A stretch of 64,000 nucleotides of DNA from an uncultured Pelagibacteraceae bacterium (lineage in GTDB: Bacteria; Pseudomonadota; Alphaproteobacteria; Pelagibacterales; AG-422-B15): contig CACCAS010000001.1 in assembly GCA_902544065.1 (NCBI GenBank), positions 151,088-215,087 of the forward strand, in the 5' to 3' direction. Shown here piece by piece: positions 12,001-18,000 of this stretch. Positions within the stretch are counted from its first letter, which is position 1. The number at the start of each line of letters is the position of its first letter. The position numbers were made by a program.

Positions 12001-15000
12001 AAAAATGGAGTAATAAATGTTTGTATCTTTTACCGATTGGGAATTTGACGGAAATGTTGAAAATGCAGTTGAAAATATGAAAGGTTTTTGGCCTGAGATG
12101 AAAAAGCATGGAGCAACTAATATGCGTGCAACAGTTACGGGAGAAAAGACACTCAGAACGATGACTATCTGGAGCAGCGAAGAACAAGTGAAAGCTAACA
12201 TCGATGAAATTAGAGCAGCGGCTGGTAAAGCTGTAGGCATGACCACAACAGGTGGCATGATGGGTACAGTCGCAGTTGAGCTTGATTGATTTATTAATGA
12301 GAAGCAGTTTTTGTAATTGAGTGGTGCCCCCACACGGACTTGAACCGCGAACCTATTGATTACAAATCAATTGCTCTACCAATTGAGCTATAGGGGCAAT
12401 AAGGCTTTCAAGGGTTAGTAAAATCTGGGACACCACCGGGCCACCATCACTAGACTCTTGAAAGTGTGTTCATGCTTTATAAACTACGTATAAAATTATC
12501 ACAAACAAAACTTAAGTTATTGAAAAGTGTCATCTTTTAGACTATGAACCTTTTAAATATTGAAAAGCATAGAAATAGGCGACCCCAACATCAATTGCAC
12601 TATGAATAATAAAGGTTTCACTCTCATTGAACTTCTCGTCGTCGTTGCGATTATTGGAGTATTGGCTGCAGTTGGAGTCCTGGCGTTCCAAGGTTTTATG
12701 GAAAGAGCAAAAATTAATAGCACAAAATCTCAACATAAAACTGTCGTAAACTACATGCGAACTGAATTCCAAAGATGTTCTCTAGGAGAGGATCTCTTGA
12801 CTTATAAAAAATGGCATTCTACTGGAAATGAATGGAATATTATTGAAACAAGTGTTCTGTGCAGTGCTGATGCAGATATCCATGCTCAAAGTATTGATGA
12901 TCACTTTGAAGCAGAAGGTTTCATGAACTCTTTTGGATATGGAAGAGCAGTTGAAAGAGTCAACGTTGATATAGATCCTACAAGCCCAGGCTTTACAAAT
13001 ATATTTTGTGTTAGTGATAAGCAATGTAAAATTAAGACACATATTCACGGTTATCGCTTCTGGACAGATATGGTGACAAAAGAGTAATATAAAATATATG
13101 GCTCAAAAAGGCTTTACCCTCATTGAACTTCTCGTCGTCGTTGCAATCATAGGAGTATTAGCGGCGGTTGGCGTAGTAGCTTTTAATGGATTTATAAATA
13201 CTACTAAGGTTAATGCGACGATTCAAAGTCACAATACTGTGGTTAAATTTATAAGAACAAGTTTAATGAAATGTAATATATCTGGAGAACTTATATTAAA
13301 GCAGAATCCTCGAACAGATACAGGCAACCTATGTGTTTATGTTTCAAATCCAAATCCTGGTGCATTGATCTCTGCTTTTTGGAATCACTTAACAGCTGGA
13401 GAATATTGTAATACATACGGGTTAACCCATAACTCTGGTACATGTCAAGAAGGAGTCGCTCAAGGTGGTGCAATAGGCGCTGGTAATTTAGGTGAGGTAA
13501 AAATGATTACAGTTGGAACTACAATTGTAGTAGATACTCACTACAAGCAGGGTGAAAATTTAAATGATGTTATCAGAATTGAATAAAGGCTTCACCCTCA
13601 TTGAACTTCTCGTCGTCGTTGCAATCATTGGAGTACTGGCGGCTGTTGGGGTAGTAGCCTTCAATGGATTCATTTCAAGTTCAAAAAATACAGCATGTCA
13701 GGCTGAACATAGCAACAGAAGCAAATCGGCTCAATTGAAAATTAGTGAAAATATGCTTAATGGACAAAATATCACATTTACAAATATTGACGGAAATAAC
13801 GACACGATAAATTTTAATAGCAATACTTGGATACTTGTTTCGGGTTTATCTTCATATTTAAAATCTGAATATAAGAACCCAAATGGACCACTAAACGGAG
13901 CATGGGATCACTCTACGTATTTTGTAGATATTAATCAAATACCCACATCATGTACAGCCACTCAAATTGGCTACTCCTTTATGACAGGCATAAATGACAC
14001 ACGAACAATAAAATTTGGAACTTGTTGTAAAGTTGATCAACCGGCAATAGAAGAAAAGTTTAAATGGTAAATCGATATGTTTTAATATTTATTCTATGAC
14101 CCATAAAGGTTTCACTCTCATAGAACTTCTCGTTGTAGTTGCAATTATCGGAGTACTGGCAGCTGTTGGCGTAGTTGCATTTAATGGATTTATGAACTCT
14201 GCAAAAGAGAATAGTACAAAAGCTCAACATCAATCAGTTGTAAAGTTCATGCAAGTTCAATTTACAAGATGCTCGCTCGGCGAAACAGAATTATCATATA
14301 ATAAACCAAATTGGGATGGTTCTGCCTGGGGAGTGATTACGGTAAATGAATCTTGTCTGTCAACAGCGGACACACACGCCAAAAAATTTGACGATCATTT
14401 CGAAGCTGAAGGTTTTTTAAATCCATTCAATACAGAATCAAGAGCAGTTGAAAGAAAAGAAAATTACTTAGAGCCGTCAAGGGCAGGGGCCATATATATT
14501 TTTTGTCCAAATGATACTTCGTGTGAAATAAGAACAAAAATTAATAATAGCTTATGGCTGAAGGACACAGTATCAAAAGAATAAATAATATGCAAAAAGG
14601 CTTCACCCTAATTGAACTCCTCGTCGTGGTTGCAATCATCGGAATTCTGGCGGCAGTTGGGGTGGTCGCATTTCAGGGATTTATATCAAAATCTAAGCTT
14701 AATACATGTAATAGTAATTTTTCAACAGTATCAAAGTACGTTGGGACAACAATATTACAGTGTGAGACGCAAGGAGGCGTTTGGCCTTTTACAGAAACTA
14801 ATCAAGAAGCTTGTAATGTATGGCCCCCAGAAGTTCTAGCTACACAAATAGGTGCACATATTAATTATATGGGATTTAGAAACCCCTATGATGGAAGAGA
14901 GCTGGTTTTAAGTGGCTCAGATCCAAGCATAGGTGGTATATCAATTCATTCTCCGTCAATCACCTCTAAAGAAATTTATGTTACGAGTTGTTGCCAAGAC

Positions 15001-18000
15001 GATTGTTGGGGTGCACAAAATATATATACTGATAGAAGAATTTATACTTGTAATACATGTCCATAACCTCTTTGAATAATAAAGGCTTCACACTCATTGA
15101 ACTTCTCGTCGTCGTTGCGATTATAGGTGTACTTGCAGCAGTTGGAGTTCTTGCCTTCCAAGGTTTTTTAAAAAATTCAAAGGAAGTTTGTGCAAAGAGT
15201 AACCACAAGAATATGGTTAATTTTACTAGAGTCACACTAAATAATTGCTCAATAAACCCTACAATTACATTACTTGACAGAAATGGTGAAGATGTTGTCA
15301 GGGACTGTTCCCAACCTGGAAGTCAATGGGATGGTTACATGAGAGATCATTTTGTTGGTTCTGGATTTAGATCGTGTGATGGAAGTGACACAGCTATACC
15401 GATTGGCAGGGCCCATCATACCTATCCACCTGCAGGTCAAACATATTATTCTACAGACAACGTAGCTAACTGGCCTTTTTATATAACAACTTGTTTTGCA
15501 GAAGAAGATTGCAAAAGAGATATTGTTTATTGGACACCTTAATCATTTGATATGAAACAAAAAGGCTTCACACTCATTGAACTTCTCGTTGTCGTTGCGA
15601 TCATTGGAGTCCTAGCTGCTGTTGGTGTTGTTGCTTTTAATGGATTTATTAACAATGCAAAGATTAATACTGTTAAAGCAAATCATTCTTCAGTAGTTGA
15701 TTATATTCAATCAGAATTGTGGAAGTGTAACCTTGGATCAGAAACAGAAGCATATGAAAAACAACAGGCTAACCCATCAGTATATAGTGGTTATGGGTCG
15801 CCAAAATGCGACCGAGAATTTATAAATATTGCTGCTGGTATCATGTCTTATCTTCATAACTTTGATGAAAAGGGATATGATAATCCTTTTGGTGATACTT
15901 TAGATACAGGCATTAATATGCAAAGATCATGTCCTGACATAGTAAATATTGGTAGAATAAATATTGAATTAATGGCTAATAATAATGAGATTACAATTTG
16001 CTCTAGATGGGGAAGTGGTGAAAGTGAAATTACACAATCTTATATTAAAAATCCTTTTTAATAATTATTAATGACTCAAAAAGGCTTCACACTCATTGAA
16101 CTCCTCGTCGTGGTTGCGATCATCGGAGTACTGGCTGCCGTTGGTGTTGTTGCATTTAATGGTTTTATTGGTAACGCTAAGGTAAATGTAGTTAAATCCA
16201 ATCTAGATTTGGCAATTAAACATGTGAGTACTCAGTTGATGAGATGTGAGTTTGGTACAAAAATACAATCATCCTCTGGAGGTGAAGCTTATGAAAGAAA
16301 TTGTGACAATGTTAGCTCGAACACGACTGATCGTTTTATCCAAAACTTTGGCTACACAATGCAAGTTTTAGAGGAGGACACTCAACAATACCCAAATCCA
16401 TTTAAGTCAGGCGATAGAGGATTTGCAATCAGTTCGGGTGTTCCACCAACTTCACAAATCGGACGAGTTCATTGTGGAGTTGATCAATCCATTAATTCAA
16501 ATTTAATCAATTGCCATGCTAGATGGGGAGAGGGTGAAAACGATTACGATACAAAAAGTATCTCCAATCCATATTTATAAAATACATTATGGTTTACTTA
16601 GAAATAATTATTATATTTTTCCTAGGACTTTCTTTTGGTAGCTTTGCTAATGTTTGTTCTTTACGCTTACCACTCGATAAAAGTATTCTCTTCAATTCTC
16701 ATTGCCCGATATGTGCTTCATCCATAAAGCCTTACGATAATATTCCCCTAATTTCATATTTCCTTTTAAAAGGAGTATCTCGGTGTTGCAAAAAAAAGAT
16801 ATCTCTTCAATACCCTATTATTGAGTTAGTTTCTGCATTATTGTTAATTTTAATATTTCTGAAGTTTGGGATTCATTTTGAAACAATTTTTTTGTTTGCT
16901 TTTTTGTTATGCCTATTAATAATTTTTGTTAGTGATCTAAAATTTTTTATCATACCTAACGAAATTACATATTTTCTGGTTATGCTGGGAATTATATCAA
17001 TTATCTTTGACTTTAATCCATTCAAGACTGGGGTCTACGAGAGTTTAATTGCGGGATCATTTGCCTTCTTTACTTTTTTTTTAATTTCTAAATTATTTCT
17101 TTATATCAAAAAAAAGGAAGGCCTTGGGTTTGGTGATGTAAAAATTATCGGAGCAATAGGAATTTGGTTAGGAATCGAGGCAACCCTGATTGTTATAATT
17201 TATTCGTCATTACTTGGTATTTTAGTTGGGACTGCGATGATAATGAGTAGAAAAATTGAGAAAGGTGATTATTTGCCTTACGGATGTTTTATTACAGCTT
17301 CAGTTTTTATATTAACTTATCAAACAATCTGGCTAAATTTTAGTTTATTCAATTTTATCCTAGAATCTATTTAGAATAACTCTCTCCACCATTTAATTAC
17401 TGGCATAAAGGGATTGGTGCTTGAAGATGAGGAGCCTACCTGCGCGCCTTGAAGAATATTGCCAGTTAAGGTAAAGCTAGAGTCTATAGAGTCATCGTTT
17501 TCACTTGCTCCACTAAGTCCTATGTATTGCTGGCCTTTATAAAAAGTTATTGATGTTGCAACACCTTTACCAAGTGAAATTTTATCGTCGCCTGTATCGG
17601 AGGATACAGTCTGGGTACAGCCAAAGCGGTAGTCATGTGTTGATTGAAATGCATTTCCAGGTTGACACGGATTAGTAGCATCAGGAACATATCGATTAAA
17701 ATATACAATTCCATTTTTAATAGCAGGTTTAGCTGTCACTTTTTCTTTACTGTCTAAGTTTATATACCAACCATTTTTGTCAGCAGCAGCAATACAACTT
17801 GTTTGGTTTGTAGCATTGAAACAGTCAGTTTCTGTGAGCGTTGAAATTGAACTGTTGAAACTTGGAAATTCAAGATCTTTAATACCATATAGCTGATTTT
17901 GAATTAAAGTTGAAGTGGACGCTAATTGCTGTTGATCTCCAGTACCGTAGTATAACCAAAGTTTATTTGTACTTTCATCTATTGATGCAGCTACATCAAA

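Follow-up and report, generated by a model that had tools for sequence, protein, structure and literature searches.

We analysed a stretch of 64,000 nucleotides (nt) from a metagenome-assembled genome (MAG) of an uncultured Pelagibacteraceae bacterium (SAR11; contig CACCAS010000001.1 of assembly GCA_902544065.1, positions 151,088 to 215,087), in the following called the window. It contains a tandem array of eight type IV pilin genes (P1 to P8), flanked by a type II secretion operon on one side and the full gene set for a type IVa pilus on the other (Table 1). The EF-Tu and S10 encoded in the window are identical to proteins from Pelagibacteraceae MAGs, in agreement with a SAR11 genome. The evidence below makes it probable that this is a strain-variable array of complete type IVa-style pilins, whose members are shuffled by crossovers within a shared 5' module while each pilin type is kept under purifying selection, such that the array would provide a flexible repertoire of pilus subunits. 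Strain-variable pilins and multi-pilin loci are already known; what appears to be new here is an array in SAR11 whose pilin genes are complete and conserved, and that is shuffled by recombination and varies between strains.

The array consists of eight consecutive open reading frames (ORFs) on the plus strand (12602-16580), which encode 158-169 amino acids (aa) each and are separated by gaps of -23 to +25 nt. All eight products read K/N-G|FTLIELLVVVAIIG(V/I)LAAVGV(V/L)AF(N/Q)GF, and an N-terminus of 32 residues is near-invariant. The class III signal (K/N/R)G|FTLIELLVVVAIIG... is also found in P9 and P11, which together with P10 form a second pilin locus in the window; P10 reads IG|FSLIELLVTLAILG. 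A class III signal followed by a hydrophobic alpha1-N helix is required for cleavage by the prepilin peptidase PilD, for membrane anchoring and for packing into the filament core. With the Pfam model N_methyl (PF07963, curated cut-off 21.2 bits) all 11 window pilins scored 26-38 bits, and the cut-off of TIGR02532 was passed by each of the six window pilins scanned. An alignment of the 11 proteins has 18 invariant columns, every one inside the first 37 residues, and the identity to P1 ranges from 22 to 55%. A preliminary description of the window, made from its sequence alone, had reported eight complete class III prepilin genes in tandem, and this is borne out by the ORFs, the N_methyl scores and the alignment. 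The three further family members it had placed at 33967-35415 also pass N_methyl, with P10 as the divergent one. Tandem runs of short pilin ORFs in 159 unrelated pilD-anchored loci comprised four genes at most and were absent from 128 of these loci. The eight-pilin array is not a chance pattern.

Two details of the N-terminus were noted in passing. Position 22 is Val in all 11 window pilins (...AAVGVVAFNGF) and Gly14 is retained; the family thus lacks the kink residue Pro22 that is common in type IVa pilins and GspG. The leader of the first array gene is perhaps long in relatives of the window: one related contig (L001, 206-277) reads MKLFYMLKNIEIGDSDTNCASNNK|GF, and in the contigs L185-L191 (L185 ~1381) no ATG adjoins the GF; in the window (12560-12613) an ATG gives MNNK|GF.

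The 5' module that the genes had been said to share is real at the protein level but not at the DNA level. As DNA the 96-nt modules of the array copies are only 73-85% identical and carry many synonymous differences. The array modules have therefore not been recently homogenised, and this idea was rejected.

Behind the module follow the C-terminal head domains, whose initial description as unrelated was overstated. BLASTP searches run after removal of the first 30 residues connect most members with E-values of 1e-4 to 1e-39. The heads of P1, P4 and P9 are 36-46% identical (P1/P4 46%, P9 with P1/P4 36%; E-values 1e-18 to 1e-39) and those of P7 and P8 31%; P5 matches P9 and P11 at ~30% and P2 matches P1 at 27%, while P6 is linked weakly. 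Across 12 head domains, two Cys residues and the motif (F/Y)xNP are conserved. The sub-pairs P1/P4 and P7/P8 recognised earlier are real, and P9 also joins P1/P4. The P3 head has no BLASTP link to the remaining pilins, matches only 12 clusters in 5.8 billion proteins and is a sequence orphan. In the AlphaFold2 (AF2) model of P1 (predicted local distance difference test score, pLDDT, 92.7) helix 8-60, strands 65-74 and 77-86 and helix 91-104 are followed by three to four strands, so that a beta hairpin, alpha2 and a beta sheet come after the long alpha1 helix. The model of P3 (pLDDT 80.7) has helix 7-61, strands 65-68 and 74-77, helix 83-97 and then four strands. As modelled, P1 and P3 share one architecture with the same order of helices and strands, and this predicted architecture appears pilin-like. 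Most heads are still recognisable as homologues of one another.

Relatives of the array were collected in several ways. Scans anchored at the peptidase gene that follows P8 were swamped by generic A24 patterns: in genomes they gave one close relative (L001) among 80 loci, and in metagenomes no close relative, with matches of 40% identity or less. Exact look-ups of the window peptidase and of P7 returned no identical record. Protein look-ups added 46 contigs (L161-L206), 30 of which carry pilins. All comparison loci but one, the single-cell genome L174 (GCA_902533965.1), are metagenome contigs. Cassette types were defined by clustering the C-domains at 70% identity or more, and types absent from the window carry labels beginning with n. 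By this measure 143 pilins fell into 28 cassette types.

One close relative, L001, comes from a Tara North Atlantic MAG; at the DNA level the flanks of this contig are 96% identical to the window. It contains seven pilins in the order n3 (a new type, placed behind the same upstream region), P1, P2-like, P3, P7-like, P4 and a P5/P8 chimera. Its P2-like pilin is diverged (50% C-domain identity), as is the P7-like one; the P5 head and P6 are missing. Counted by type, two of the seven are new and two diverged. The last pilin consists of the leader and module start of P5 fused to the body of P8, and blastn breakpoints between L001 and the window lie inside the N-terminal modules. The contig (PAAD01000062.1) was deposited as "Flavobacteriaceae bacterium NAT231" despite its 96% identity to the window and is probably mis-binned or mislabelled.

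Other relatives differ from the window in a similar manner. An identical P2 protein occurs in 15 contigs with differing neighbour cassettes, in at least three arrangements besides that of the window. While the window order is P1 P2 P3 P4 P5 P6 P7 P8, we found P1 P2 P3 n1 P4 n2 P8 in L188, P1 P2 P7 P3 n1 n5 ... in L185, L187 and L190 (in L189 up to n1), n3 P1 P2 ... in L184 and L192, and P8 n1 P2 n14 [insert] n4 P5 P7 P6 in the single-cell genome. P2 is followed by P3 in four loci, by P7 in five and by another type in one. The successor of P7 is P8 in one case (the window), P3 in four (L185, L187, L189, L190) and P6 in another four (L174-L176, L178), the last being the reverse of the window order. 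P3 has successors of four types and P4 of three (P5 in the window, n2 in L161 and L188, P8 in L001). In L174 the P5 orthologue is followed by P7 and not by P6, and L165 carries a P6 orthologue of 89% C-domain identity. An adjacency of P3 and P8 in L184 was discarded, because a 100-N scaffold gap lies within this array. Adjacencies not seen in the window recur across independent samples and in the single-cell genome. The array varies between strains with a strong recombination signal, and a static array, the outcome that the preliminary description had named as speaking against its proposal, was not found in the relatives (L001 and L161-L206).

The junctions between cassettes indicate where the exchanges take place. 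For each head type, the 36 nt upstream of the module and the first ~40-50 nt of the module itself track the upstream neighbour, while the last ~40 nt track the head. The 3' end of P7, its spacer and the leader "ATGACTCAAAAA", for example, precede the heads of P8, P3 or P6. In averages over 55 unique junctions, pairs that share the upstream gene but not the head keep an identity of 80-93% as far as about nt 35 of the module, and the value declines to background by nt 84; the gradient is reversed in pairs that share the head but have different upstream genes. When orthologous cassettes from close relatives are compared, 10.5% of the bases (142/1350) differ in the module, which is invariant as protein, and 3.7% (213/5829) in the C-domain (Fisher p 2e-21). 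Accordingly, Nei-Gojobori values of the synonymous divergence dS were 0.4-1.2 for the module and 0.04-0.14 for the heads in most close-relative pairs. For P4 in the window and in L161, where the upstream neighbour is conserved, module (3.3%) and C-domain (3.6%) differ alike. Both the switch in linkage and the excess divergence of the module imply that recombination inside the module shuffles the cassettes. The longest exact runs shared by array modules (35, 32 and 26 nt) are sufficient for homologous recombination.

The conserved 5' coding module would thus double as portable homology. Crossovers or gene conversion inside it would move, delete, insert and reorder units that reach from mid-module to mid-module. 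Such a unit begins with the 3' part of a module, its C-domain and stop codon, continues through the spacer and the next leader, and ends with the 5' part of the module that follows. Owing to such mid-module crossovers, cells with an identical copy of one cassette differ in the sets and orders of the others. A truncated module (MRQKGFTLIELLVVVAIIGVLAA, then unrelated sequence) in L174 (5933-6091) forms the 3' edge of the array beside a gamma-glutamyl transpeptidase gene and is probably a deletion scar inside the module. Two dedicated systems were considered and rejected. An integron-like array has no room for attC sites (spacers of -23 to +25 nt), and no integrase or recombinase domain occurs in the scanned neighbouring genes. 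A shufflon (Rci/sfx, IncI PilV type) is contradicted by the uniform orientation of the members, which share a strand at every locus, and a recombinase gene was not found among the scanned neighbours either.

The 96-nt modules have a GC content at third codon positions (GC3) of 0.25-0.47 in the array (12614-16178), compared with 0.06-0.16 in the static P9-P11 locus (33988-35025); head domains and rpoB/rpoC have values of ~0.23-0.25. The array modules have a raised GC3, which may have been left by GC-biased gene conversion, judged from a small sample of non-independent copies. A more far-reaching idea, which we consider tentative and rather unlikely, is that the 5' module has been co-opted for a recombinase-free, population-wide exchange of cassettes, perhaps via pilus-imported DNA. 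Homologous recombination could then insert any head that lies between two modules into any array. Combinatorial, strain-specific heteropolymeric pilus surfaces, assembled from a common pool of conserved heads, would be under frequency-dependent selection by pelagiphages or grazers, and the GC3 would be the footprint of recurrent biased conversion.

Despite the shuffling, the individual types are well conserved. The ratio of nonsynonymous to synonymous substitution rates (dN/dS) of orthologous heads was mostly 0.03-0.13, with 0.32-0.39 for P1, and all array ORFs are intact. Decaying duplicates, which had been raised as one outcome, are not what these values describe. In lineages with a PilY1 ~81% identical to that of the window, the head types are still found at 74-93% identity, which suggests that the cassette types are old and have been differentially kept or lost. 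Purifying selection on each type argues for an array that serves as a flexible repertoire of working subunits rather than as a collection of decaying copies or silent donors. A transfer of cassettes from lineage to lineage had also been considered, as they are 84-93% identical where PilD reaches only 51-60%. It was dropped because PilY1 and PilX of these loci are 76-82% identical; PilD is the outlier, and the cassettes are consistent with vertical orthology and differential retention. Compared with L162 and L165-L167, the window peptidase shows 51-60% protein identity, PilY1 80-86% and PilX 76-82%; dN/dS is ~0.2 for the peptidase after the array vs 0.05 for PilY1. By these figures PilD is a fast-evolving outlier among its neighbours.

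The window encodes two A24 prepilin peptidase paralogues that are 38% identical. The first lies next to the type II secretion operon in divergent orientation and probably represents GspO. Since this A24 gene lies beside the type II operon and no pilD follows pilBC, the second, located behind P8, is most simply explained as the PilD that serves the type IV pilus, and most likely is. In all relatives its gene and that of PilY1 are convergent, and P8 directly followed by the peptidase is also found in L001 and L204-L206. In L168 and L169 a peptidase of 51% identity is preceded by RecG, SdhE, Mfd, CoA-transferase and YajQ instead of an array and is convergent with a gene that is weakly PilY1-like (~50% identity over 30% of its length).

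In a consensus scan no terminator-like site was seen inside the array, and promoter-like sites were rarer than in shuffled sequence. The earlier proposal of a single transcript is compatible with an array free of terminator-like sites, and co-transcription of the array with the peptidase gene appears plausible. One upstream promoter would read the array together with pilD, PilD would process the products and the adjacent machine would build them into pili. There they would act as alternative or accessory subunits beside P9, resulting in strain-specific pilus surfaces.

The array members could instead be true major pilins that are used singly or dominated by position, with turnover evading pilus-specific phages or grazers. 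We regard this as possible but unlikely. Set and order do differ between strains, with n3 at position 1 in L001, L184 and L192 behind the same upstream region, and in size and N-terminus the members correspond to major pilins; in addition, pilins are located in SAR11 hypervariable regions (PMC2217521) and pili are phage receptors in other bacteria. This is difficult to reconcile with types that are conserved under purifying selection across lineages with 81% identical PilY1, with the finding of no invertible promoter, recombinase or internal terminator in the array and the scanned neighbouring genes, and with the properties of P9. P9 is nearly invariant (2 distinct sequences among 11 copies), has a better ribosome-binding site and is followed by a probable terminator of its own. 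The latter is a perfect hairpin that none of 200 shuffled sequences matched in folding. The gene order PilQ-PilB-PilC-P9-P10-P11-SpoU was the same in all 10 complete cases (nine independent contigs and the window). P9 is thus the best candidate for a housekeeping major pilin and probably serves as such. Its invariance and static locus argue against variation of the major subunit itself as well as against a donor role of the array. Antigenic variation of the major subunit, suggested initially, is therefore not favoured.

An array of pilin-like proteins with a role outside the pilus, i.e. extra type II pseudopilins or PilD-processed binding proteins that are surface-exposed or secreted, we hold to be improbable. 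The type II operon and a second peptidase gene are found immediately upstream, and the heads have nearly no relatives: the P1 head gave 14 matches among 1.84 billion representatives, and the head profile matched 18 clusters, all from marine metagenomes. The type II system, however, already has its own set of G, H, I, J and K, and in relatives the array accompanies the PilD/PilY1 side; in L185 a fatty-acid hydroxylase gene and not a type II operon lies upstream. Moreover, type IV major pilins are the best match to the N-termini of the array. When the 11 window pilins were combined in a profile, it matched solved type IV major pilins in the PDB over alpha1 only. The Pfam model Pilin (PF00114) gave zero matches among the window pilins, and all NCBIfam equivalog matches were below cut-off and confined to the N-terminus.

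Apparent shuffling could also arise as an artefact if metagenome assemblers had mis-joined co-occurring strains at the repeated module. The comparison loci are metagenomic bar one, the L184 array has the gap mentioned above, and the order P4-P8 of the window is unmatched. Still, we consider an artefact quite improbable, as P7-P6 is found in the single-cell genome L174 and three contigs, and P2-P7-P3 in four JGI samples, with different assemblers. Exact repeats do not exceed 35 nt and are far below the k-mers given in the contig names (k119, k127, k141). The static P9-P10-P11 genes have the same kind of module and never vary, and mis-assembly would not yield the excess synonymous divergence of the module.

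A donor reservoir for one expressed pilin, P9, is hardly credible: many divergent pilin C-regions near one conserved pilin and evidently active recombination recall Neisseria pilE/pilS, where pilS copies without promoter, start codon and 5' conserved region donate to one expression locus, but each array member has a start codon, leader and full N-terminus, and the module of the almost unvaried P9 shares exact matches of 11 nt at most with any array module (64-69% identity, different synonymous codons).

Some observations weigh against a shuffled repertoire of pilus subunits. The P3 head is not linked to the others by profile-profile comparison, in which only the second helix and a KNP motif align (E-value 0.034), and Foldseek searches with the P1 and P3 models gave no significant match to a solved pilin. 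The array genes are without Shine-Dalgarno-like sequences, P9 having a modest one (with an assumed anti-Shine-Dalgarno sequence), so that the array members may be translated weakly. L168 contains an orthologous peptidase without array, and L174 an array without peptidase that ends at the gamma-glutamyl transpeptidase gene. The coupling of array and pilD is thus not obligatory. A peptidase "dedicated" to the array or its "own", as the preliminary description had it, is unsupported by these two loci and by the position of the other paralogue with the type II operon. The comparison set consists almost entirely of metagenome assemblies. The window adjacencies from P4 through P8 were recovered in no other contig, and this part of the order could be a MAG chimera.

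The surroundings of the array have the features of a hypervariable region: the flanks are 96% identical at the DNA level to those of L001 while the arrays differ, and a tRNA-Thr gene with a partial copy lies upstream. The tRNA-Thr is 205 nt upstream of P1, and the partial copy, ~350 nt beyond the full gene, looks like the scar of an element that integrated at the tRNA. In L185 and L186 the same tRNA-Thr is directly upstream of the array and the gene beyond it differs from that of the window. The region 12398-12601 is 88-93% conserved in L001, L185 and L188. From this arrangement the array appears to sit at a tRNA-Thr hot spot. In L174 the array is split by a 1.7-kb insert (2200-3880), which carries the gene of a T5orf172/MUG113-domain protein as well as an ORF for an acidic product of 162 aa. 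The insert has flanking direct repeats of ~150 nt that contain a tRNA-like 3' end, GGTTCGAATCCCATCCTTTCCGCCA, at which ARAGORN calls no tRNA; its structure is mobile-looking.

The peptidase and assembly genes PilD, PilY1, minor pilins, PilT, PilMN, PilO, PilQ, PilB and PilC are close to the array (16589-33580), with the PilM and PilN domains in one 589-aa ORF (26079-27848). Within 17371-25992 a TIGR match to PilV remained below cut-off. A core minor pilin set is located separately beside PilY1 (21116-24983), and the members of the array are all alike in their size and N-terminus. The array as the core minor pilins (FimU/PilV/W/X/E) was rejected on these two grounds. To the right of P9-P11 the window continues with the tuf / rpoBC / S10 ribosomal region. 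The GC content of the window is ~33%; in the region of the type II secretion operon (1-12000) it is 27-30% vs 33-38% elsewhere.

Table 1. Features of the window (positions in nt from its first base).
Feature	Position	Strand	Remarks
Type II secretion operon	1406-10971	-	GspC, D, E, F, G, J, K identified
Peptidase paralogue 1	11126-11890	+	Pfam A24_N_bact and Peptidase_A24; divergent from type II secretion operon
Partial tRNA-Thr copy	11920-11974	-	55 nt, ~53/55 bases match the full gene (blastn and alignment)
90-aa ORF	12017-12289		between partial and full tRNA-Thr; no Pfam match
tRNA-Thr(UGU)	12322-12397	-	ARAGORN and Rfam; adjoins array upstream
Upstream non-coding region	12398-12601	+	sole promoter-like site ahead of array at 12458-12485 (consensus scan)
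P1	12602-13087	+	161 aa; P1/P4/P9 subfamily; C-domain dN/dS 0.32-0.39
P2	13098-13586	+	162 aa; dN/dS 0.07-0.08
P3	13564-14070	+	168 aa from ATG, 163 aa from alternative TTG at 13579; dN/dS 0.04-0.10
P4	14096-14584	+	162 aa; P1 paralogue
P5	14590-15066	+	158 aa; Cys-rich
P6	15057-15542	+	161 aa
P7	15552-16061	+	169 aa; P7/P8 subfamily
P8	16071-16580	+	169 aa; final array member
Peptidase paralogue 2	16589-17374	+	261 aa, both A24 domains, GLGFGD motif, Cys-rich N-terminal domain; 8 nt after P8
PilY1-like protein (1252 aa), four or five minor pilins, PilT	17371-25992	-	Pfam T4P_PilY1, PilX_N, N_methyl (three proteins), T2SSE
PilM-PilN fusion, PilO, 143-aa ORF (PilP?), secretin PilQ, PilB, PilC	26079-33580	+	Pfam
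P9	33967-34440	+	conserved pilin adjoining pilBC
Hairpin after P9	34448-34480	+	perfect 15-bp; free energy (dG) -17.9 kcal/mol, z-score -7.1; 0/200 shuffles fold as well
P10 (divergent) and P11	34488-35415	+	part of static locus

Several known systems share individual features with the array. With Neisseria pilE/pilS it has in common the clustering of divergent pilin C-regions and a diversity made by recombination. The difference already pointed out at the outset holds: each of the eight genes is complete with its own start and leader. P9, the candidate for an expression-locus pilin, is in addition nearly invariant. Archaeal pilins are reported, in a 2013 study, to include several full-length proteins with a near-identical hydrophobic N-terminal domain and differing C-terminal parts, reportedly served by one peptidase and one assembly machine. 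To our knowledge they do not form a single eight-gene tandem array, and we know of no description of strain-to-strain cassette shuffling among them. In Pseudomonas aeruginosa, pilA allele groups I-V occupy the pilB/tRNA-Thr locus (Kus et al. 2004 via PMC11626772). This locus resembles the window in a strain-variable major-type pilin beside a tRNA-Thr, with conserved N-terminus and variable head, but one pilin and accessory genes are swapped there as a block, in contrast to eight tandem pilins with intragenic crossovers. Streptococcus sanguinis builds a heteropolymeric type IV pilus (PilE1/PilE2, PDB 8pfb; PilA1-3, PMC11121087) from tandem major-pilin paralogues that are co-assembled in one filament, which is a precedent for joint use; unlike the array, this involves two or three closely related pilins at a static locus of a monoderm. 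Six pilin-like genes are described for Synechococcus WH7803 (PMC7994388) and one to seven pilA homologues for myxobacteria, where tandem pilA is called unusual (PMC6060248). These planktonic or social bacteria likewise have several GFTLxE pilins, but in fewer or dispersed copies; the myxobacterial paralogues are mostly >60% similar and no population-level turnover is reported.

For SAR11, pilin genes were found in hypervariable regions (Wilhelm et al. 2007, PMC2217521), and a later study likewise places pilus genes in hypervariable regions and states the role of the pilus to be unclear (Freel et al. 2025, PMC12789548). These reports concern the same clade and strain-variable regions, but one or two pilin genes per region. 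Starved SAR11 cultures made pili and up-regulated pilA (PMC3090418). In the open-access literature we found no description of a SAR11 multi-gene pilin array or of module-mediated cassette shuffling. The run of four among the 159 pilD-anchored loci belongs to a Vicinamibacterales MAG (L014, 4636-7262), with same-strand tandem pilins of identical N-terminus near pilD. In contrast to the array, these are 65-100% identical along their whole length, two having identical 5' halves. L014 was rejected as a true analogue, since these four genes are recent duplicates over their whole length.

No heterotroph of the surface ocean is more abundant than SAR11, whose genomes are extremely streamlined. Here, such a streamlined lineage devotes ~4 kb to eight extra pilins, with each type under purifying selection. 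Conserved heads that vary between strains point to strong strain-specific selection on binding or recognition at the pilus surface, for which phage, grazers, DNA, particles and other cells are candidate agents. The array also offers a natural example of a conserved coding segment that would serve as portable homology, allowing whole genes to be shuffled without a dedicated recombinase. Because the cassette types are markers that can be traced in metagenomes, metatranscriptomes and metaproteomes, the array offers a handle on pilus function in SAR11, the ocean's most abundant bacterium.

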